NCBI RefSeq assembly: GCF_988243305.1 | Contig: NZ_OZ547136.1 | Direction: 5' to 3' (one strand) | DNA: 64,000 nt | Part shown: positions 1 through 58,917 of the stretch, one piece after another | Layout of the letters: the number at the start of each line of letters is the position of its first letter | Position numbering within the stretch: position 1 is the stretch's first letter | Translations under genes and position numbers: made by a program | Notes under the pieces: model-generated | Databases searched by the model: none | What the model was told of the DNA's origin: nothing | The model's input: the letters and a program-made list of their open reading frames with translations, nothing else

Positions 1-1102
1 CCAGTACCAGCAGGGCAAGAATAACCAGAATAGAGTGGACCACCGCCGAGATAGGGGACGTTGCCCCGGCACGGACGTTAGCGGCAGAACGCGCGATGGC
101 AGCTGTAGCGGTAATACCACCAAAGAACGGAGCGATAATATTCCCCAGCCCCTGTCCAACCAGTTCGCTATTCGCCTTGTGTTTTGTCCCGGTCATACCA
201 TCCAGCACCACGGCGCAGAGCAGAGATTCGATTGCGCCGAGCATTGCCATTGAGAATGCCGCAGGCAGCAGTGTGCGAATAGAATCCCAGGTTAGCGTGA
301 ATTCTGAATTGGGCAGGTCCCACGGCAGCACCAGTTGTGGCAGCAATTGCGGAATACCGTTACCCTGAGAACCATCGGCCAGAACGTAGTGGAACTGCGA
401 ACCGATGGTAGCAACATGTCCGCCGAGCAGGTTAACAATCCCCATCACCGCGCAACCAGCCAGCAAGGCCGGAAGGTGACCAGGCAAACGAATGCCCAGA
501 CGCGGCCAGAAAACCAGAATGCCAAGCGTCACAATGCCAATGGCTGCATCACCCACATTAATGGTCGGCAGCGCCATAAATAATGCGCCGACTTTTTGTA
601 GATAATGCTCCGGGACATGGGCCATTTGCAGACCGAGAAAATCTTTAATCTGCATGGTACCGATGGTGATCCCGATACCCGAGGTGAAACCTAAGGTCAC
701 GGAAACCGGAATATATTCAATCAAGCGTCCAAAACGTGCCAGCCCCATCAGGATCAAAAAGACACCTGACATGAGTGTCGCGACCAGCAGTCCTGCCAGT
801 CCAAACTGTTGCGAAACGGGATAGAGAATTACCACAAATGCCGCAGTCGGACCGGAAACGCTAAAGCGTGACCCACCCGTCAGAGCAATGACAATCCCCG
901 CAACAGCTGCGGTATATAAACCGTACTGGGGTGCCACACCACTACCAATAGCCAACGCCATTGCCAGCGGGATAGCAATAATCCCGACGGTTATCCCGGC
1001 AATCAGGTCACGGGTAAACCGTGCGGCAGTATATTTTTCTTTCCAGCAAGCGTCGATCAGAGCGCGGAAAGGCATCACATGTGAGGAAAATATTTTGTTC
1101 AC
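1..1102 (-). CDS. dauA: C4-dicarboxylate/sulfate transporter DauA (SulP family), partial; C-terminal part lies beyond window start
   Basis: Minus-strand frame from GTG at 1102 reads [24 protein letters not shown], the DauA/YchM N-terminus; no minus-strand ORF is listed here in the track, consistent with the frame running off the window; conserved position next to prs. Confidence 0.85.
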
Positions 1103-1226: not shown

Positions 1227-2300
<1,074 letters not shown>

Positions 2301-2324
2301 TCACCGAAACTCAGCTTGCCCGGC

Positions 2325-3175
2325 TTAAAGCATGGCTCTGTGCAATGGGGAAAGATTAACGCCTTTCGCCACAAAGCCATTGAGCCATTCCGGGGCTTGC
2401 TCTAGCACCTGGCGGGCTTCAGACTCTGTATCAAATTCAGCAAAGACACAGGCCCCTGTCCCAGTCAGGCGCGACGGGGCGTATTCTAACAGCCAGGAAA
2501 GCACCGCATCAACCTCGCGAAAACGTTTTCTTGCGATAACCTCGCAATCATTGCTGAATTCACATTTTAGCAACGTTTCTATTGACCTTTTTGGCGTATT
2601 GCGCGGGAGTTCAGGATCTTTAAAAATCACCGGTGTCGGAATACTTACACCAGGGTGCGCCACCAGATACCACTTCTCTGGCGGATCCACCGGCGTTAGT
2701 ATTTCACCAACGCCTTCGGCAAACGCGGCATGCCCCCGAACAAAGACAGGAACATCTGCGCCCAGCGTCAGCCCCATTTCCGCCAGCTCATCCATGCTTA
2801 GTCCGCATTGCCAGAGATAATTTAACGCCACCAGAACCGTCGCGGCATTGGAAGAACCACCGCCGAGACCGCCGCCCATCGGCAAACGCTTATCAATGCT
2901 GATATTCGCACCGCTTCCCGTCGGAAGACGCCCGCTGTCTGCCGCAGTTTTCATCAACAACCGTGCTGCGCGAACGATCAGGTTATCTTCATGTTCCACG
3001 CCTTCAACGGGCGTTAACAGACGAATATCCCCATCGTCACGAAGCTCAATGCTGATGGTGTCGCCGTAATCAAGAAACTGAAACAGCGTTTGCAGCGTGT
3101 GGTAACCATCCGCACGCTGACCGGTAATGTATAAAAACAGATTAAGTTTTGCCGGAGAGGGCCACTGTGTCCGCA

Positions 3176-3176: not shown

Positions 3177-3868
<692 letters not shown>

Positions 3869-4012
3869 CTATGTTCAAGTTGTCTTAATTGCCAGAATCT
3901 AACGGCTTTCGGCAATTACTCCAAAAGGGGGCGCTCTCTTTTATTGATCTTACGCATCCTGTATGATGCAAGCAGACTAACCCTATCAACGTTGGTATTA
4001 TTTCCCGCAGAC

Positions 4013-5269
4013 ATGACCCTTTTAGCACTCGGTATCAACCATAAAACGGCACCTGTATCGCTGCGAGAACGTGTATCGTTTTCGCCGGATAAGCTCGATC
4101 AGGCGCTTGACAGCCTGCTTGCGCAGCCGATGGTGCAGGGCGGCGTGGTGCTGTCGACGTGCAATCGCACGGAACTTTATCTTAGCGTTGAAGAGCAGGA
4201 TAACCTGCAAGAGGCGTTAATCCGCTGGCTTTGCGATTATCACAATCTTAATGAAGAAGATCTGCGTAAAAGCCTCTACTGGCATCAGGATAACGACGCG
4301 GTTAGCCATTTAATGCGTGTTGCCAGCGGCCTGGATTCACTGGTTTTGGGGGAGCCGCAGATCCTCGGTCAGGTTAAAAAAGCGTTTGCCGATTCGCAAA
4401 AAGGCCATATGAAGGCCAGCGAACTGGAACGCATGTTCCAAAAATCTTTCTCTGTAGCGAAACGCGTTCGCACTGAAACAGATATCGGTGCCAGCGCTGT
4501 GTCTGTCGCTTTTGCGGCTTGTACGCTGGCGCGGCAGATCTTTGAATCGCTCTCTACGGTCACAGTGTTGCTGGTAGGCGCGGGCGAAACCATCGAGCTG
4601 GTAGCGCGTCATCTGCGCGAACATAAAGTACAGAAGATGATTATCGCCAACCGCACTCGCGAACGTGCCCAAATTCTGGCAGATGAAGTCGGCGCGGAAG
4701 TTATTGCCCTGAGTGATATCGACGAGCGTCTGCGCGAAGCCGATATCATCATTAGTTCAACTGCAAGCCCGTTACCGATTATCGGTAAAGGCATGGTGGA
4801 GCGGGCATTAAAAAGCCGTCGCAACCAACCAATGCTGTTGGTGGATATTGCCGTTCCGCGCGATGTTGAGCCGGAAGTTGGCAAACTGGCGAATGCTTAT
4901 CTTTATAGCGTTGATGATCTGCAAAGCATCATTTCGCACAACCTGGCGCAGCGTAAAGCCGCAGCGGTTGAGGCGGAAACTATTGTCGCTCAGGAAACCA
5001 GCGAATTTATGGCGTGGCTGCGTGCACAAAGCGCCAGCGAAACTATTCGCGAGTATCGCAGCCAGGCAGAGCAAGTTCGCGATGAGTTAACCACTAAAGC
5101 GTTAGCGGCCCTTGAACAGGGCGGCGACGCACAAGCCATTATGCAGGATCTGGCATGGAAACTGACTAACCGCTTGATCCATGCGCCAACGAAATCACTT
5201 CAACAGGCCGCCCGTGACGGGGATAACGAACGCCTGAATATTCTGCGCGACAGCCTCGGGCTGGAGTAG
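4013..5269 (+). CDS. hemA: glutamyl-tRNA reductase
   Basis: Track ORF 3815-5269; internal ATG at 4013 gives [21 protein letters not shown]..., the 418-aa HemA. Confidence 0.95.
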
Positions 5270-51470: not shown

Positions 51471-52109
51471 ATGAAAAAGTTAACAGTGGCGGCTTTGGCA
51501 GTAACAACTCTTCTCTCTGGCAGTGCCTTTGCGCATGAAGCAGGCGAATTTTTTATGCGTGCAGGTTCTGCAACCGTACGTCCAACAGAAGGTGCTGGTG
51601 GTACGTTAGGAAGTCTGGGTGGATTCAGCGTGACCAATAACACGCAACTGGGCCTGACGTTTACTTATATGGCAACCGATAACATTGGTGTGGAATTGCT
51701 GGCAGCGACGCCGTTCCGCCATAAAATCGGCACCCGAGCGACCGGCGATATTGCAACCGTTCATCATCTGCCGCCAACACTGATGGCGCAGTGGTATTTT
51801 GGTGATGCCAGCAGCAAATTCCGTCCTTACGTTGGGGCAGGTATTAACTACACCACCTTCTTTGATAATGGATTTAACGATCATGGCAAAGAGGCGGGGC
51901 TTTCCGATCTCAGTCTGAAAGACTCCTGGGGAGCTGCCGGGCAGGTGGGGGTTGATTATCTGATTAACCGTGACTGGTTGGTTAACATGTCAGTGTGGTA
52001 CATGGATATCGATACCACGGCTAAGTACAAATCTGGTGTTACTACCGTAAAAGACTCGGTACGACTGGATCCGTGGGTGTTTATGTTCTCCGCAGGATAT
52101 CGTTTTTAA
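51471..52109 (+). CDS. ompW: outer membrane protein W
   Basis: 212-aa ORF with signal peptide MKKLTVAALAVTTLLSGSAFA and C-terminal aromatic residue (YRF) typical of beta-barrel OMPs. Confidence 0.96.
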   Translation: MKKLTVAALAVTTLLSGSAFAHEAGEFFMRAGSATVRPTEGAGGTLGSLGGFSVTNNTQLGLTFTYMATDNIGVELLAATPFRHKIGTRATGDIATVHHLPPTLMAQWYFGDASSKFRPYVGAGINYTTFFDNGFNDHGKEAGLSDLSLKDSWGAAGQVGVDYLINRDWLVNMSVWYMDIDTTAKYKSGVTTVKDSVRLDPWVFMFSAGYRF

Positions 52110-52154: not shown

Positions 52155-53285
52155 TCAAATGACCAGTTTTTTCCATTCCTTACCGCGTGCGTCGTTGTAA
52201 ATATCGGTCATTTTTTGATTCGAATGGCCTAGCAAAATTTTGGTATCAACCCCCTGCTCTCTGAACAATCGCTCTGATAAAGATCTCTGCTCATGGAAAG
52301 AGGGAGGGGTGCCATTAGCACGCCAGTTGTAATCCACAGAATCCCGGGCTTTTTTAAATGCAACGGTTAATGTTGCTGGCTTAACCATCCCGCCGCGCTT
52401 AGCTGTCCCTTTCGCGTGATGGTGGTGCAATAGCCACGGACTAAGAACGCAATCGCGGCAGGATGACACCACATCATCCAGGGTGAGATTTAATTTATCG
52501 CAACGCAGAGCCAGAGGGATGGCAATCCGGGTTCCTGTTTTTTGCTGTTCGACATGAAGATAACCATCCCGGATATCCGAAAATTGCATTTTGCAAATAT
52601 CTGAAAGGCGCTGGCCTGTCATCAGTGCCAGCAGCATACCGCGCTGTAAAAAGTAACCATCCTTTTCCGCTGCGTTATAAATCATCATCCACTCATCAAA
52701 AGTCAGTCGCTGTCTTGATATCCGCACCTGCGGTTTTTTTGCCGATTCTGCAGGGTTAAAGCCTGGCGGGACATCGCCCGTTTGCTGAGCTTCCCGGAAA
52801 ACATCGATCAGTACTTTCCTGAAAATTTGTCCCATTCTGTTATGTCCTCTGGCCTTGTACTCTTCCAGTACTGATACCACATCTTTTACGGTTATGGCAT
52901 CTAACGGTCTGGTGCCAAAACGTTCATCAAATACCCTGAGAGGGGCCGCTTTCTGTTTCAGCGTGTTGAGTTTGATCTCGCCGTTTTCATATCTTTCCTG
53001 TTGAATTTTTCTGTAATTATTCAGAAAAATGGTAACGGTTGATGAACCGCCGGTATCACTAATAATTTTCTCCTGCAGACTGAGCATTTGTTCCATTTGC
53101 TGCCGGGCAAGACGGCTGTTCGCTTCTGCTGCAATAGTTTCTGCCAGTTTCTGGTCAATACTGCCGAGACCGTGATTTTTGCCTGTTATGGGATGCCTGT
53201 AACGCCAGTAAACTTTGTTATTTCTTTTGTCAAAATACGGAGATAATCCCGGAACATCGGTTTTATATTTTCGCGGGCGCGCCAT
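52155..53285 (-). CDS. int: phage tyrosine integrase (lambda Int family)
   Basis: 376-aa ORF; C-terminal catalytic region with LGHSNQKMTDIYNDARG (Tyr nucleophile context); 3' end overlaps the hairpin adjacent to ompW. Confidence 0.9.
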   Translation of the reverse strand: MARPRKYKTDVPGLSPYFDKRNNKVYWRYRHPITGKNHGLGSIDQKLAETIAAEANSRLARQQMEQMLSLQEKIISDTGGSSTVTIFLNNYRKIQQERYENGEIKLNTLKQKAAPLRVFDERFGTRPLDAITVKDVVSVLEEYKARGHNRMGQIFRKVLIDVFREAQQTGDVPPGFNPAESAKKPQVRISRQRLTFDEWMMIYNAAEKDGYFLQRGMLLALMTGQRLSDICKMQFSDIRDGYLHVEQQKTGTRIAIPLALRCDKLNLTLDDVVSSCRDCVLSPWLLHHHHAKGTAKRGGMVKPATLTVAFKKARDSVDYNWRANGTPPSFHEQRSLSERLFREQGVDTKILLGHSNQKMTDIYNDARGKEWKKLVI

Positions 53286-53511
53286 CTTCCAGTATCCTCT
53301 TCAAAGCAGGGTGATCTGTGGCGATCACCTCCGGCTTGTTTACCATTCCGACAAAGCGAGCTTGCGGATCCACTCGCCAGCGTCTTCCAACTTTTTTGGG
53401 GAGAGGAAATATCATTCCGGCTTTAGCGTATTTACTTAACGTACTCGGAGTAGGGACCGGTTCACTGAATTCCTCTTTTGCCCACTCAGTGAGCAGAATA
53501 AGTCTTGCCAT
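53263..53511 (-). CDS. xis: excisionase-like DNA-binding protein
   Basis: 82-aa ORF MARLILLTEWAKEEF... with a winged-helix pattern similar to lambda Xis (MYLTLQEWNARQ...); overlaps int start by 23 nt. Confidence 0.7.
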   Translation of the reverse strand: MARLILLTEWAKEEFSEPVPTPSTLSKYAKAGMIFPLPKKVGRRWRVDPQARFVGMVNKPEVIATDHPALKRILEDGAPAKI

Positions 53512-53575: not shown

Positions 53576-56050
53576 TTAAAAATCAGCCTGATTCGGGATC
53601 AGTTTTTGCCAGATAGTTGAAACGTATTTTGCCTGGTAACGGGCATCATCCAGCGCATTGTGGCGCTCACCTTCGAATGGAATAGCCGCCCTGGCATCGA
53701 AGTCCATGGCTTTTCCCAGCTCAACGATTGTGCGTACATCGCGATCGTTGTAGTAACGCCACGGGCAGGGGATCCCCTGCCGTTCGTATGAACGGCGCAA
53801 AATCGTGTTGTCGAAGTTGGCTCCATTTCCCCAGACCTGAACAAAAAATTCGCCGGAGTTTTCGTCGATAAATTCCCGCAATTGCAGCAGTGCATCATCT
53901 AACGGGATTTCATCGGTCAGAATGGCAGATTGCGCCTCCCGTGATTGCTTAAGCCACCATTTAATGGTGCCACGATCAATGACTCCGCCAGCAGTATCCA
54001 TATCGATGGTCTTACTAAATTCCGGCCCCATATCTCCGGTTTGCGGATCGAAAAATATTGCACCTATTGAGATAAGCGGGGCATCGGGATTTTTTCCCAT
54101 GGTTTCAAGGTCGATCATCATGTGGTGCCACATTCTGCTGGTGGATGTGATTTCTTGATGACCGTTCACCTTAATTGAGTGATCTGCCGTCTCGCCAGTT
54201 TCATTATCGCTATCGTGATGCTGATTGCCGCCAGTGTTCTCCTTGTGTGGATGTTCAGCGCCTTCCATTTCCTCTGGATCATCTTCCTGAACTTCAGGCT
54301 GATACTCTTCATCGAATGTTTCCTGGTATGTTGCGTCGCCCATTACCGCGCCACAATCAGGGCAGTTGCCGCCGCCGGTCTGACCGCAGGCGGTGCAGAC
54401 TTTTTCCACTTCCTGTTGCGCCACTGATTCAGGCTGTTTCGTTTCTGGCTCGTTTTGTAACGCATTTGGGCTGTTTTGTTCCGCTTTCTGGTCGTTCTGT
54501 TCCGTTTCTTGCTGGTTCTGGTTCACAGAATCGCGGGTCTGGTTCCCCTTAACCCATTTCGGATCATTCGGGTCGCTAATCCCTTCAACAAATTCACCAC
54601 GTGATACTGCAAGCAGTTCATCGGCGTCAGGCTGGCTGATATTGGCTGCCTGCATAATTTTGTTTACTTCGTCAGCGGTAACTTTTACTGGCTCTGGTTG
54701 TGCGGTCGTGTCAGATGCACCAGTATTTTGTTGTGAACCTGAGTATGTACCGTTTTTACGTGCGAAGTATTCCTCTTTTGTGATTTCCGTAGCTCCCAGG
54801 GCCAGTGCTTTTTCCAGACCAGAAAGTTTGTTTGCGCGACCGTATTTTTCGCCGTCCTTATCGGTGAAAAGGAAGTAGAACGGTCCCTCACGCTCTACAG
54901 ATGGTTCGTCTTCCACTTCGCATTCGGTTTTTTCGTTGTCCGGCATTGCCGTTTCCACTGCATCAGTTTCTGGTACTGGTGACGGGAGAGTACCAGCTGT
55001 GCCCTGATTTGTTCCTTCGTCATCTTCAAACACGCCCTTGGTAGTCAGGTATTCAGTGATGTATTTGTTCAGTGCTACGGGATCTTTGTGAATGTCGATC
55101 GGACGCTCACGGACAAGGCCAAAAATAGTCTGACGGTCGTAGCGAACGGCATCGGGTTGTTTGCGCATTGATGCGGAAATGCGCTTCCAGTCTTCGCGAT
55201 CTTTGTCGATAACTTCATTTTTTGCCCAGCGATGGATGCTGCCGTCAATGTTTCCGGTATCAATATCGCCAGGCCAGAGAGCGTAGGCCAGTTCTTCATC
55301 CAGCGTTTTCCATGTCTGCTTGTATTCGCGACAAATGGCGGCAGTGACTGGGTTGATTTTTCCTGCTGAGTTTTCAGTGTTCTGTTGATTGACTCTGGCG
55401 CGGGCGAGATCAACAACAGACGTGTATTTTCCGGTTTCCTTGCGTTCACCTTCGCGACGTTTTTTCCAGATGCGCATCTCTGCCTGAATTTCGGGCCATT
55501 TGGCACCAGGCTTACATTTATGCTTAACCCACCCGATGGCATGCAGCTTAAGCTCCGGATACATGGCGTTAACTTCTGGCATTTTCATCAACGCTTCAAC
55601 GATATGTCCGTCGAATGTTGCCATGTCTTCCTGCAACAATTCCTGTGCGCTAATAACCATATCAACGGTGATGTTTTCACATGTGTCGAACTTAACCATG
55701 ACAGCGTTCTGTACTTCAGGGGCCAGCTTGTCAAAAGTGACGTTCATCGGATCGGATTCAGTCTCAACCGGGACAAAGGAAGCAGACTCCTCATCCCAGC
55801 GGTTTTCCTGCATATATTCAGCATCCCAGGAATCGAGGGCAGGGCGGGGTATACCGGGTTTATCCTCGCAGACAAGAAATTTATAAGCGCAGTCCTGAGC
55901 AGCCGGATAATGCTCCAGGAATTGCCAGTGAAATTTTGCGCGGGCGCGACGTTCATCACCGGCTTCAATGGCAGTGGCTACAGCGACGGCACCTTCTTCC
56001 TTTATTGCCTGTTCGTCCGGAATGGCGGCGCAAATAAAGACTTTACTCAT
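53576..56050 (-). CDS. large prophage exonuclease: RecE/exonuclease VIII-like positional homolog with C-terminal DnaQ-like (DEDDh) 3'-5' exonuclease motifs and an internal CxxC-x8-CxxC zinc ribbon
   Basis: 824-aa ORF; C-terminal motifs MIDLETMG (Exo I), WGNGANFD (Exo II), HNALDDARYQA (Exo III); Cys pair CTACGQTGGGNCPDCG; acidic low-complexity linker; positioned between dicB and xis like lambdoid exo genes. Confidence 0.7.
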   Translation of the reverse strand: MSKVFICAAIPDEQAIKEEGAVAVATAIEAGDERRARAKFHWQFLEHYPAAQDCAYKFLVCEDKPGIPRPALDSWDAEYMQENRWDEESASFVPVETESDPMNVTFDKLAPEVQNAVMVKFDTCENITVDMVISAQELLQEDMATFDGHIVEALMKMPEVNAMYPELKLHAIGWVKHKCKPGAKWPEIQAEMRIWKKRREGERKETGKYTSVVDLARARVNQQNTENSAGKINPVTAAICREYKQTWKTLDEELAYALWPGDIDTGNIDGSIHRWAKNEVIDKDREDWKRISASMRKQPDAVRYDRQTIFGLVRERPIDIHKDPVALNKYITEYLTTKGVFEDDEGTNQGTAGTLPSPVPETDAVETAMPDNEKTECEVEDEPSVEREGPFYFLFTDKDGEKYGRANKLSGLEKALALGATEITKEEYFARKNGTYSGSQQNTGASDTTAQPEPVKVTADEVNKIMQAANISQPDADELLAVSRGEFVEGISDPNDPKWVKGNQTRDSVNQNQQETEQNDQKAEQNSPNALQNEPETKQPESVAQQEVEKVCTACGQTGGGNCPDCGAVMGDATYQETFDEEYQPEVQEDDPEEMEGAEHPHKENTGGNQHHDSDNETGETADHSIKVNGHQEITSTSRMWHHMMIDLETMGKNPDAPLISIGAIFFDPQTGDMGPEFSKTIDMDTAGGVIDRGTIKWWLKQSREAQSAILTDEIPLDDALLQLREFIDENSGEFFVQVWGNGANFDNTILRRSYERQGIPCPWRYYNDRDVRTIVELGKAMDFDARAAIPFEGERHNALDDARYQAKYVSTIWQKLIPNQADF

Positions 56051-56638: not shown

Positions 56639-56977
56639 ATTGATAACAGAGGGCGTTGCAGCGGGGTTGTCACTTAAGCGTATGGTCAACCTGACAACCC
56701 GGTGTCCTCAACGGGGGAAGGAATAACCCCGCCATACTTACCGCCGCGCCATTTCGCGGATTGCCACAACCGGAAGCGCACGGTCGACGAAAATTTAACG
56801 ACAGGCTATCTATGAACCAGCTACCTCGCCGTGCGCTTTCGCGTTATGGTCTGACTTTTCAGGGAAATATCCTTTCAGTAAACTGTCAGTGCCGGATTCT
56901 TATCCGTGTCCGGCGCACGACCACACGCTGTCACGAGAGGTCTCCATTCTCAACCAGTAACCTCAATGGAGGATAAA

Positions 56978-57172
56978 ATGTCAGAGCAGGAGTTAAAACT
57001 TGGTGCATGTTATTGTGTTCTCAAGGAGCTGGTACACATGCTTCCATCTACTCAGTATCAACAGTTAGTTGGCAATTTAAATCAGCGAATCGAAGCTATG
57101 TTAAAATCTGATGGTTTTAATAACGTAGAAACGCTGATGCTAAAAAGATATCTTGATGGATTAATCAGATAA
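56978..57172 (+). CDS. hypothetical small protein (64 aa) encoded convergently within the early-left region
   Basis: ATG at 56978 preceded by a strong SD (TGGAGGATAAAATG); MSEQELKLGACYCVLKELVHMLPSTQYQQLVGNLNQRIEAMLK...; inside track ORF 56906-57172; no competing minus-strand ORF over 25 aa in this interval. Confidence 0.5.
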   Translation: MSEQELKLGACYCVLKELVHMLPSTQYQQLVGNLNQRIEAMLKSDGFNNVETLMLKRYLDGLIR

Positions 57173-57935: not shown

Positions 57936-58610
57936 TCAGTCTAAGTATTGATGTATTTGTGAAACTTTACCTTTAATGGTGTAACCACCATTAAGTTCGA
58001 TGGGTTTGTAAAGCGGATTCAGTGACAACAGATAGATGTTTGGTCCGTCAATCGCAACTTTTTTTAGTGTTACGTTTGGCGTTCCTTCCAATTGGATTAA
58101 GATTATTTTTCCCACCAGTTCTCTAATGTTACTTGAGCATGGTGTGATCAGCACGGTAGATCCGTCGGGGATGGTTGGGAGGCCGTTAGAGTTTGTCATC
58201 GCATCTCCCTCAACATGCAATAAAAAAGAGTTTTCAGCGGTTTTTGTCATGACATCAACCCAATTCTTAATACCAGGAATCTCGGTTACTGGACAACTCA
58301 TATCCCAATAACCAGCCTGTTCCCACGTTAAAACGGGCAACCGGGCGATGTTGTCACTAATGTAAGGGTACTGATTCAGACGCAGATCATCGGCTTTATC
58401 GTGACCGTCCTTTCCATAAAGAATCCATTCAGGAGATTTGGAAAGCAATTTTGACAGTAGATACAAATTCTCACCGTCAGGTTTTGAAGAGCCATTTTCC
58501 CATTTTGTTACGGATACACGAGATATGCCGATTGCTTTCGCAACCTGCTGTTGGGTTAATCCAACGTCTTTTCGACGATTCCGAATACGTTCGCTGATAG
58601 TGTTTTTCAT
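57936..58610 (-). CDS. prophage CI-like repressor (XRE HTH N-terminal domain plus S24/LexA-like autopeptidase C-terminal domain)
   Basis: Track ORF 57936-58709; start placed at ATG 58610 (MKNTISERIRNRRKDVGLTQQQVAKAIGISRVSVTKWENG...) by close resemblance to the P22 C2 N-terminus; C-terminal Ser/Lys dyad context (GDAM...KK). Confidence 0.85.
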   Translation of the reverse strand: MKNTISERIRNRRKDVGLTQQQVAKAIGISRVSVTKWENGSSKPDGENLYLLSKLLSKSPEWILYGKDGHDKADDLRLNQYPYISDNIARLPVLTWEQAGYWDMSCPVTEIPGIKNWVDVMTKTAENSFLLHVEGDAMTNSNGLPTIPDGSTVLITPCSSNIRELVGKIILIQLEGTPNVTLKKVAIDGPNIYLLSLNPLYKPIELNGGYTIKGKVSQIHQYLD

Positions 58611-58624
58611 GTAACCAATGTTAC
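58611..58624. promoter_or_regulatory. candidate right operator site (PRM-proximal)
   Basis: Palindrome GTAACCAATGTTAC immediately upstream of the repressor start. Confidence 0.55.
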
Positions 58625-58658
58625 TACCAAGTGATGTTGCTATGGTTGACATTGTTAT

Positions 58659-58672
58659 GTAACTATTGTTAC
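58659..58672. promoter_or_regulatory. candidate right operator site (PR-proximal)
   Basis: Palindrome GTAACTATTGTTAC adjacent to a TTGACA hexamer (58646-58651) upstream of the cro-like gene. Confidence 0.55.
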
Positions 58673-58701
58673 CCTTCTGCTCGAAATAACAGGAGAGTTT
58701 T

Positions 58702-58917
58702 ATGTTCAAAGATGATGTTCTGCGCTATTTCAAAAAAAAGCGACTAGTAGCTGAGGCTCTTGGAATTTCACATGTGGCTGTTGTGCGGTGGAAAGCAGTT
58801 ATTCCCAAACTTCGCGCAATGGAACTGGATGAAATTACTAACGGTGAATTGAAATACAACCCAGAACTTTACAAGAAGCAGGATAGCACCTCAAACGAAG
58901 GAAAGAATGATTCATGA
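58702..58917 (+). CDS. Cro-like/YdaS-family HTH DNA-binding protein
   Basis: 71-aa ORF with SD AGGAGAG; HTH segment LVAEALGISHVAVVRW; divergent from the repressor gene. Confidence 0.7.
   Translation: MFKDDVLRYFKKKRLVAEALGISHVAVVRWKAVIPKLRAMELDEITNGELKYNPELYKKQDSTSNEGKNDS

Follow-up and report, generated by a model that had tools for sequence, protein, structure and literature searches.

A RecE-family scaffold with a predicted DexA-type DEDDh 3'-5' exonuclease head in the early-left operon of a lambdoid prophage

The window analyzed here is a stretch of 64,000 nucleotides from contig NZ_OZ547136.1 (RefSeq assembly GCF_988243305.1), and it includes a lambdoid prophage beside ompW. The early-left operon of this prophage contains an intact 824-aa ORF with an ATG start (Table 1), exactly as described in an earlier reading made without database searches (the sequence-only reading), and the gene does occupy the exo/recE slot of the operon as that reading proposed. 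No gene lies between it and xis, a layout that is identical in the annotated sequence NZ_CP042903 and that is also found in the viable phage mEp460. On the other side, a cI-like repressor bounds the operon. All ORFs between the exonuclease gene and the repressor are at most 116 aa long (ORFs ≥25 aa were scanned). In a PHROG search that covered six upstream ORFs, the repressor, and three early-right ORFs, these small upstream ORFs matched only PHROGs of unknown function.

We found no sigma-70-like promoter on the exonuclease gene's strand just upstream of it, and no Shine-Dalgarno-like sequence before Met640, Met644, or Met645, where a stand-alone head might start. Thus, both a promoter of its own and an internal start for a stand-alone head were rejected. 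The 11.8 kb of prophage contain three Chi sites, or ~1 per 4 kb, a sample too small to interpret.

Table 1. Coordinates of the exonuclease gene, its parts, and neighboring genes (positions in the window)
Feature	Position	Strand	Basis
ompW, adjoining integrase	51471..52109
Integrase int, prophage end, abuts ompW	52155..53285	-	ORF list; annotation of matching locus L001
Excisionase xis, directly downstream of exonuclease	53263..53511	-	ORF list
Whole ORF: RecE-family scaffold plus predicted DEDDh 3'-5' exonuclease head	53576..56050	-	ORF list; PHROG 2082; RefSeq
Predicted DEDDh 3'-5' exonuclease head, aa 643-814	53609..54124	-	Pfam PF16473; RNase_T; PDB match
RecE-homologous linker with zinc ribbon, aa 476-626	54173..54625	-	BLASTP vs RecE ~455-591
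Zinc ribbon CxxC-x7-CxxC, aa 552-566, CTACGQTGGGNCPDC	54353..54397	-	Regex on translation
Mini-domain, aa 388-435, two beta-hairpins plus helices, motif GPFYF...GRANK	54746..54889	-	AlphaFold2
Acidic disordered linker 1, aa 345-385	54896..55018	-	Composition; AlphaFold2
Scaffold domain 3, aa 247-338, helical module, common to RecE ~270-345	55037..55312	-	BLASTP vs K-12 RecE
Scaffold domain 2, aa 105-227, helical bundle, remainder of Q-type N1 module	55370..55738	-	AlphaFold2 helices 111-227
Scaffold domain 1, aa 1-100, small alpha/beta, part of YdfE_N module	55751..56050	-
cI-like repressor, HTH plus S24 peptidase, bounds early-left operon	57936..58709	-	PHROG 4 "transcriptional repressor", E 3e-44

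The C-terminal head matches Pfam PF16473 (Rv2179c-like) over model positions 2-177 of 177 (E 5.4e-66), and RNase_T also matches it (E 1.3e-3). The Exo I, II, and III motifs that the sequence-only reading had placed at the C-terminus are indeed there, at aa 645-652 (MIDLETMG), 740-747 (WGNGANFD), and 797-807 (HNALDDARYQA). They carry the catalytic residues D647 and E649 (Exo I, DxE), D747 (Exo II), and H797 and D802 (Exo III, H-x4-D), which are conserved in 75-78 of 78 homologs, and the head as a whole has a dN/dS of 0.17. Its sole PDB sequence match is a 227-aa "Exodeoxyribonuclease" (8KEL/8KEN, E 6.6e-6), which we take to be T4 DexA based on PMC12153337. The 824-aa query matched 745 phage records, nearly all via the DEDDh domain, stand-alone members of which are widespread in phages. 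These matches assign the head to the DEDDh (DnaQ-like) exonucleases of the PF16473/DexA family, and we predict that it is a Mg-dependent 3'-5' exonuclease. The founding member of PF16473, Rv2179c, is an exoribonuclease, so RNA is also a possible substrate of the head.

The ~500-aa N-terminal region was previously thought to have no recognizable motif, but it is in fact homologous to RecE and contains YdfE families. By BLASTP, aa 262-626 align to residues 278-591 of Escherichia coli K-12 RecE (E 6e-60, 38% identity overall), while the first ~260 aa are a YdfE_N module. Close homologs carry the N-terminal Pfam families PF27430 (YdfE_N) and PF27432 (YdfE_C), both precomputed assignments given without boundaries. 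Because of this N-terminal homology, the protein is best read as a head-swapped RecE relative and not as an unrelated giant exonuclease. The best stretch of NCBIfam PRK09709 is aa 445-626, and the match to the NCBIfam RecE model (NF007259, equivalog) is limited to the same residues and reaches 278.7 bits vs. a cut-off of 1269. BLASTP gave no alignment to the RecE nuclease (residues 600-866), and Pfam shows no PD-(D/E)XK domain at the C-terminus, only the DEDDh domain. A canonical RecE C-terminus was rejected on these three results, and the earlier statement that the nuclease is not of the lambda-Exo/RecE type holds up. Judged by homology, the gene encodes a RecE-family scaffold with its PD-(D/E)XK head swapped for a DexA-type 3'-5' exonuclease.

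The ~640 residues before the head form a scaffold of acidic disordered linkers, on which sit a zinc ribbon, a mini-domain, and three folded domains. Domain 2 (dN/dS 0.20) belongs to one of two alternative N1 types, Q-type vs. RecE-type (Pfam PF06630), that we distinguished among relatives by module blastp of 150 cluster representatives. Nearly all of these relatives have a domain 3, regardless of head; in the protein studied here, it is modeled with a pLDDT of 90-97 and has a dN/dS of 0.13. Linker 1 has 35% D+E in aa 361-400, a pLDDT of 32-54 (<50 for aa 345-383), and a dN/dS of 2.2, which is that of sequence without constraint. A second acidic, low-complexity linker spans aa 567-640. The acidic linker of the sequence-only reading is thus real and occurs as two segments that reach 35% D+E. 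Between them, the mini-domain (pLDDT 94-97, dN/dS 0.07) is, along with domain 1, the most constrained part of the protein. Relatives whose head is of the DEDDh, RecE-nuclease, or Rad52-like type have it too, and it is unaligned in K-12 RecE.

The RecE-homologous linker shares 76.7% nucleotide identity with K-12 recE over 443 nt and is near-identical to RecE around GISDPNDPKWVKG and the zinc ribbon. The zinc ribbon itself had been noticed earlier with a spacing of x8, which we correct to x7; 77-78 of 78 homologs conserve its four Cys, and K-12 RecE has the same motif, CNACGQTGGDNCPDC. To our knowledge, a solved structure and an assigned function exist for no part of RecE other than its C-terminal nuclease domain, and the full-length protein is known only for enhancing linear-linear recombination.

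The ORF is intact in 78/80 related loci with an overall dN/dS of 0.21. The values of 0.07-0.20 for the folded parts and 0.26-2.2 for the linkers indicate purifying selection on every folded part of the protein. Decay was considered, i.e., that the gene is a non-functional recE remnant in a defective prophage, as K-12 has only a pseudogene fragment from this family, ydfE, which is cut by IS2, and many partial copies exist in databases, although these are mostly contig-end artifacts. This reading is effectively refuted by the intact ORFs, the domain-specific selection, and the conserved catalytic and zinc-binding residues, and a viable phage (mEp460) carries the gene. By these comparisons, the exonuclease gene appears to be functional and not decaying.

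The family is already known as a gene, with a RefSeq annotation, its own PHROG, and its own Pfam families, so as a gene call it is routine. PHROG 2082 ("exonuclease") covers the whole protein (residues 1-824; profile positions 1-823/823), and 98.9%-identical copies are named "3'-5' exonuclease" in RefSeq. The gene family is common in E. coli, where it is present in 3533 of 5426 complete genomes (about two thirds) at a median of 2 and up to 10 places per genome. In the literature searched, we found no functional study and no biochemical or genetic data for the architecture of a DEDDh head on a RecE scaffold.

Across the 150 cluster representatives, the same scaffold bears four alternative heads, and all combinations of heads with the two alternative N-terminal modules are seen. 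The RecE-nuclease head is followed by recT in 5/5 cases and the DEDDh head in 0/5, in a comparison of 5 vs. 5 divergent clusters; in the four DEDDh-head clusters other than our own, we found no annealase gene near the head. Thus, a separate recT gene tracks head type rather than scaffold. The third head is a predicted Rad52-fold annealase and is followed by a Mu Gam-like gene. For this head, fold comparison alone is informative: Pfam Rad52_Rad22 reaches only E 0.13 and a PDB profile search was empty, so an annealase call at the sequence level was rejected. Based on the modeled fold, the Rad52-fold annealases that are labeled "exonuclease" are probably mis-annotated. The fourth head is of another type.

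The sequence-only reading had reported no annealase gene between the exonuclease and xis, and our searches agree. We detected no annealase by tblastn of three RecT proteins and one Rad52-like annealase domain against the window, nor any annealase genes in 80 close homologous loci (the single-protein search for loci returned close relatives only) or in phage mEp460. An overlooked annealase was rejected after the ORF scan, the PHROG search, and tblastn on the window and the 80 related loci, and no recT-like gene turned up outside the earlier ORF calls. The adjacent annealase gene that would place the protein in a two-component exonuclease/annealase (SynExo) system is absent. A hidden SynExo pair, in which the N-terminal scaffold or a small upstream ORF has an unrecognized annealing function, would be in keeping with relatives in which scaffold and annealase are fused in one polypeptide, and with the upstream small ORFs having no assigned function. 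However, the PDB matches of the N-terminal model include no Rad52-, RecT-, or Erf-like fold, and the upstream ORFs are below the size of known annealases. In addition, the 5' tails left by a 3'-5' exonuclease are of the opposite polarity to the 3' tails on which known phage annealases load. We regard such a hidden recombinase as very unlikely.

In Salmonella phage g341c, the gene order is erf, ssb, gene 29, abc2, which puts a stand-alone, 54%-identical member of the head's DEDDh clade (gene 29) inside a canonical Rec module. A DnaQ-like gene in the Rec module of epsilon34 is noted in the passages of PMC12315714 drawn on here.

The most likely role is scaffold-delivered trimming of DNA 3' ends in early lytic growth. 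For the more specific model of a modular early-left RecE-family protein with a DexA/Rv2179c-type DEDDh head that trims 3' ends independently of an annealase, we put the chances at about even. In this model, a DexA/Rv2179c-type DEDDh domain would have replaced the RecE-type 5'-3' PD-(D/E)XK head, and the protein would be made once the cI-like repressor is lifted. The scaffold can be tied to recombination because it also bears RecE nuclease heads that are then followed by recT. It would bring the head to a target that it also serves in RecE and in the annealase fusions; this target may be linear DNA ends or intermediates of replication or recombination. There, the head would be a metal-dependent exonuclease working inward from free 3'-OH ends, with DNA as its most likely substrate, as for T4 DexA, so that 3' ends of phage or host DNA would be trimmed within the phage DNA-transaction program. 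Any strand pairing would depend on host RecA/RecBCD, or the 5' overhangs created would anneal on their own, and the protein would therefore not be one half of a two-component exonuclease/annealase recombinase.

There is precedent for parts of this model. T4 DexA is a 3'-5' DNA exonuclease with a part in intron homing driven by double-strand breaks (PMC12153337). According to the abstract of preprint 10.1101/454074, in vivo cloning in E. coli relies on cohesive ends made by exonuclease III (XthA). By our own reasoning, 3'-5' resection alone may be able to yield annealable ends. On the other hand, the relevant passages of PMC12315714 state that 3'-5' exonucleases of the ExoI and ExoX type usually suppress recombination by removing 3' tails, and they do not count DnaQ-type genes adjoining int as members of the Rec module.

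The main rival to 3'-end trimming, which we consider unlikely, is that the protein is a prophage-encoded defense or exclusion nuclease whose DEDDh head breaks down nucleic acid of rival phages, with the scaffold as an auxiliary or targeting domain. The E. coli DexA homolog EcD (HREX) degrades 5hmC-modified T-even DNA, and protection of cells and digestion of T4 DNA by it have been reported (PMC12153337), and an EcD-like 189-aa protein (starting MIDTET, with A78 as in EcD) is 36% identical to the head (E 4e-36). In TONDO, prophage DEDDh exonucleases with auxiliary domains, which are required, trim the 3' ends of RNA phages (PMC13344964). The spread of the gene over E. coli genomes, often in multiple copies, would also fit a benefit to the host. 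However, the gene is located within a repressor-controlled early-left operon beside xis and int and lacks its own promoter-like site, so it is expected to be silent in the lysogen. It matched 0 families of defense-protein models in PADLOC-DB 2.0 at E ≤0.01, and defense-system membership was rejected on this basis. Within the head, Asp719 (78/78 homologs) aligns with the DexA tetramer contact D90, where EcD has Ala78, and Tyr767 aligns with DexA W152, a Trp that is also present in EcD and is said to stack on 5hmC. DexA W152 and D169 are reported to recognize 5hmC (PMC12153337); D169 is beyond the confident alignment. Finally, the scaffold also bears recombination heads (RecE nuclease and Rad52-like annealase), which would be unexpected for a defense adaptor.

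We also weighed nucleotide scavenging, in which host DNA or broken DNA would be degraded to mononucleotides in lytic growth to supply phage replication. T4 DexA, the closest solved relative, has a documented host-DNA role (PMC12153337), and the gene would be expressed with the early lytic genes. However, a conserved 640-aa scaffold shared with recombination proteins would be needless for this purpose. We also know of no host chromosome degradation by temperate lambdoid phages, and scavenging therefore seems quite improbable.

We tentatively raise the possibility, itself rather doubtful, that the N-terminal 350-640 residues of RecE are a general adaptor of Rac-type recombination modules on which enterobacterial phages swap effector heads. 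The "RecE-2" proteins, now labeled "exonuclease", would then be annealases on a scaffold with a Mu Gam-like protein as partner, and the DEDDh form would define an annealase-independent route, by 3'-5' resection, of processing phage DNA ends. The comparative value of the family is that one scaffold bears nucleases of opposite polarity or an annealase, which gives a handle on the large N-terminal part of RecE. A predicted 3'-5' exonuclease, with a putative role in recombination or defense, is widespread in EHEC-type and commensal prophages.

Among known systems, the survey in PMC12315714 describes, in the passages considered here, DnaQ-like 3'-5' nuclease genes within Rec modules (as in epsilon34) and, in scattered cases, beside int, as well as RecE-related proteins without a nuclease domain ("RecE-2"). 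The gene here fits the "next to int" class; those passages contain no fusion of a DnaQ-type domain to a RecE-type scaffold and no mention of a Rad52-fold head on the nuclease-less RecE-related proteins. EcD resembles the head as a DexA homolog from E. coli but is a stand-alone protein of ~190 aa that differs at the positions of Asp719 and Tyr767, and a defense phenotype has been shown for EcD only. RecE (exodeoxyribonuclease VIII, Rac prophage, K-12) shares the early-left slot near xis/int, a homologous scaffold, and the general build of a long N-terminal region, acidic linkers, and a C-terminal nuclease head. It differs in having a 5'-3' PD-(D/E)XK head vs. the DEDDh 3'-5' head predicted here, the N-terminal module PF06630 vs. 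YdfE_N, no "GPFYF" mini-domain, and a downstream recT. T4 DexA has the same PF16473 catalytic domain and DEDDh residues as the head, with low sequence similarity. However, T4 is virulent and its 227-aa DexA stands alone, whereas the DEDDh domain here forms the last quarter of a scaffolded 824-aa protein of a temperate phage.

The gene at 53576-56050 is established to join a RecE-family scaffold to a DexA-type DEDDh exonuclease; it is likewise established that the gene is under purifying selection and lies within a repressor-controlled early operon without a phage annealase. The 824-codon ORF, with its ATG start, is present as the sequence-only reading had called it, and its host element is a lambdoid prophage integrated beside ompW. 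On the minus strand, the repressor is followed by several small ORFs, the 824-aa ORF, xis, and int. E. coli CFSAN061761 has an identical annotated layout, with a 98.9%-identical copy named "3'-5' exonuclease". The viable lambdoid phage mEp460 also shares the layout (repressor, small genes, dicB, a 63-aa gene, this gene, xis, int), and its 63-aa hypothetical gene occupies the slot of DUF1482 in related loci.

Features of the prophage region and of the 824-aa protein, with dN/dS by region (72 distinct alleles)
Feature	Position	Strand	dN/dS (region)	Remark
ompW	51471..52109			prophage neighbour
int	52155..53285	-		last in minus-strand order
xis	53263..53511	-		between 824-aa ORF and int
Chi sites	53548, 54137, 59174	+
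824-aa ORF	53576..56050	-		ATG start
88-aa ORF	56906-57172	+		within early-left region
cI-like repressor	57936..58709	-		first in minus-strand order
DNA methyltransferase, 185 aa	60716-61273	+		early-right
Alpha/beta domain (1)	aa 1-100		0.07 (aa 1-100)	AlphaFold2
Helical domain (2)	aa 105-227		0.20 (aa 101-230)	AlphaFold2
Second helical domain (3)	aa 247-338		0.13 (aa 245-340)	AlphaFold2; common to RecE
Acidic disordered linker	aa 345-383			AlphaFold2
Linkers			0.26-2.2
Small beta-hairpin/helix mini-domain	aa 388-435		0.07 (aa 388-435)	AlphaFold2
Zinc ribbon	aa 552-566		0.13 (aa 552-566)	CxxC-x7-CxxC
DEDDh head	aa 643-814		0.17 (aa 641-824)	PF16473
Exonuclease motifs	aa 645-652, 740-747, 797-807			in head

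The DnaQ-like C-terminus and its three exonuclease motifs were borne out: the head matches the Rv2179c-like DEDDh domain of Pfam over its full length (E 5.4e-66), and RNase_T matches the same residues weakly. The sole solved structure detectable by sequence is a 227-aa "Exodeoxyribonuclease" (8KEL/8KEN, E 6.6e-6), taken as T4 exonuclease DexA following PMC12153337. The five catalytic residues are conserved in 75-78 of 78 sequences. Four of the 78 close homologues (loci L037-L116) carry changes in the first catalytic motif, D647N (n=3) or E649K (n=1), in ORFs otherwise intact; these retained variants may be without catalytic activity. The closest stand-alone relatives of the head (53-56% identity) are gene 29 of Salmonella phage g341c and sb30 of ST64B. 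In g341c, gene 29 stands between ssb and abc2, with erf ahead of ssb, and is thereby inside a canonical recombination module of P22 type; a match at E 3e-128 confirmed erf, and the arrangement agrees with a remark on epsilon34 in PMC12315714. In ST64B, sb30 adjoins xis/int, like the 824-aa ORF.

The N-terminal region, in which no motif had been recognised, is in fact homologous to RecE: aa 262-626 align with K-12 RecE 278-591 (BLASTP, E 6e-60), with near-identity around GISDPNDPKWVKG and the zinc ribbon and 76.7% DNA identity with K-12 recE over this stretch. The score with the NCBIfam RecE equivalog, 278.7 bits, is below the cut-off of 1269 and is best over aa 445-626. Close homologues bear two Pfam families of recent date, PF27430 (YdfE_N) and PF27432 (YdfE_C). 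The K-12 Qin pseudogene ydfE (L003:4079-4999) corresponds to the first 256 residues of the exonuclease family (95% identity) and is truncated by IS2 (IS2E), so the Pfam names stem from a gene fragment. The zinc ribbon is one residue shorter than the CxxC-x8-CxxC first read, and its four cysteines are conserved in 77-78 of 78 sequences; the acidic linker proved to be two acidic low-complexity stretches, one on either side of it. The N-terminal domain boundaries were read from AlphaFold2 modelling of aa 1-450 with 39 divergent homologues (mean pLDDT 84.6). By the regional dN/dS values and the conserved catalytic and cysteine residues, the gene is functional over its whole length, and a mere relic is highly improbable.

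The reported lack of an annealase holds. All ORFs between the 824-aa ORF and the repressor are at most 116 aa, and wherever a PHROG family matched one of them, that family has no known function. The recT-like gene that might have lain outside the ORF calls was not found when three RecT proteins and a Rad52-like domain were searched across the whole window (tblastn). RecT queries also gave zero matches in 80 IMG/VR loci whose full-length homologues are 91-100% identical; these loci cover a median of 7 kb upstream and extend downstream to the prophage end, and their larger same-strand ORFs encode repressors or Rha-like regulators or have no known function. A hidden annealase supplying the missing partner is very unlikely.

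Other genes and sites were noted in these regions. The 88-aa ORF (PHROG 4987, unknown function, E 9e-49) appears to be a conserved gene transcribed against the early-left operon, and the methyltransferase (PHROG 954, E 3e-86) lies downstream of an O-like replication gene. The window contains 11.8 kb of prophage with three Chi sites (GCTGGTGG), all of them + strand; one falls within the exonuclease gene and another between it and xis, a number too small to judge enrichment. In one related prophage, L114, two larger genes, 1825-3174 (449 aa, PHROG 8571, unknown function) and 3722-4666 (314 aa, a marginal PHROG match alone, E 6e-4), take the place that the repressor and small ORFs occupy elsewhere, 2.3-5.2 kb upstream of the exonuclease gene; they may be an insertion of accessory or defence cargo.

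Searching separate modules by blastp against 150 listed cluster representatives showed that the scaffold family is combinatorial. The first module is of YdfE_N type, as here, or RecE type (PF06630); the second helical module is common to the family, and the mini-domain and zinc-ribbon linker each occur in some members only. Four alternative C-terminal heads were found: DEDDh, the RecE PD-(D/E)XK nuclease (DUF3799), a 275-aa head-3, and a 185-aa head-4, and each first-module type occurs with both nuclease heads. Gene neighbourhood tracks the head, not the scaffold. The PD-(D/E)XK head is followed by recT in 5/5 cases (Rac, L032, L033, L126, L127), and the DEDDh head directly by xis/int, with recT in 0/5 divergent clusters (the window, L121, L030/L031, L034, L128; two-sided Fisher exact ~0.008, on small numbers). 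Head-3, with a Rad52 fold, has in 2/2 cases a downstream PF05565 (Sipho_Gp157) gene overlapping its stop codon (L117:7367-7927, L119:7442-7996) that matches PHROG 253 "Mu Gam-like end protection" (E 1.4e-37); the pair would form a two-gene annealase/end-protection module. Head-4 (motif RQIEVIYALDDLLSGRTDVM) is borne by this scaffold in 12 or more cluster representatives, matches only PHROG 26058 (unknown function), and in one case (L035:5001-7109; P0127, aa 518-702) has xis/int directly downstream.

The sequence family is thoroughly catalogued, given its Pfam families, an end-to-end match to PHROG 2082 "exonuclease", and its frequency: among 5426 complete E. coli genomes, 3533 have copies (>=80% coverage), the median genome at two places. 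The gene thus belongs to a family that was annotated before. DnaQ-type nuclease genes beside int in lambdoid phages are noted in a 2025 survey (PMC12315714). We found no functional study of the scaffold + DEDDh architecture or of ydfE in the searchable literature. That one scaffold carries exchangeable heads, including a Rad52-fold head, bears on what the first 600 residues of RecE do (PMC11611040).

The DEDDh head would remove nucleotides from DNA 3' ends, targeted by the scaffold as the RecE nuclease and Rad52-like heads would be. We give about even chances to a role in processing phage DNA ends or recombination intermediates with host pairing functions, because the scaffold otherwise always bears recombination activities and the same DEDDh clade also occurs in a canonical Rec module. 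Nucleotide scavenging is an unlikely alternative role for such a nuclease. A defence or exclusion nuclease, the main rival to DNA processing, is somewhat less unlikely: the gene is highly abundant and there are precedents, since the E. coli DexA homologue EcD is reported to digest 5hmC DNA and give protection from T4 (PMC12153337), and TONDO, prophage DEDDh exonucleases with auxiliary domains, are reported to block RNA phages (PMC13344964). However, the gene lies within a repressed operon, with no promoter-like site just upstream on its strand and no PADLOC match. The EcD primers in the supplement of PMC12153337 recovered an EcD-like stand-alone DEDDh protein (L012, L013, L016, L019, L026, L027; in L013 on the minus strand, from reverse-complement position 3480) of 189 aa, starting MIDTETLGNGPDA (MIDTET), with Ala78 and 36% identity to our head. 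It fits the published description and forward primer of EcD, but its C-terminus departs from the reverse primer, so we consider it a close variant, not EcD. By the criteria of PMC12153337 the 824-aa protein is rejected as an EcD-type variant: where EcD has Ala78 and DexA Asp90 it retains Asp719, which also speaks against defence, and it has Tyr767 at the position of DexA Trp152.
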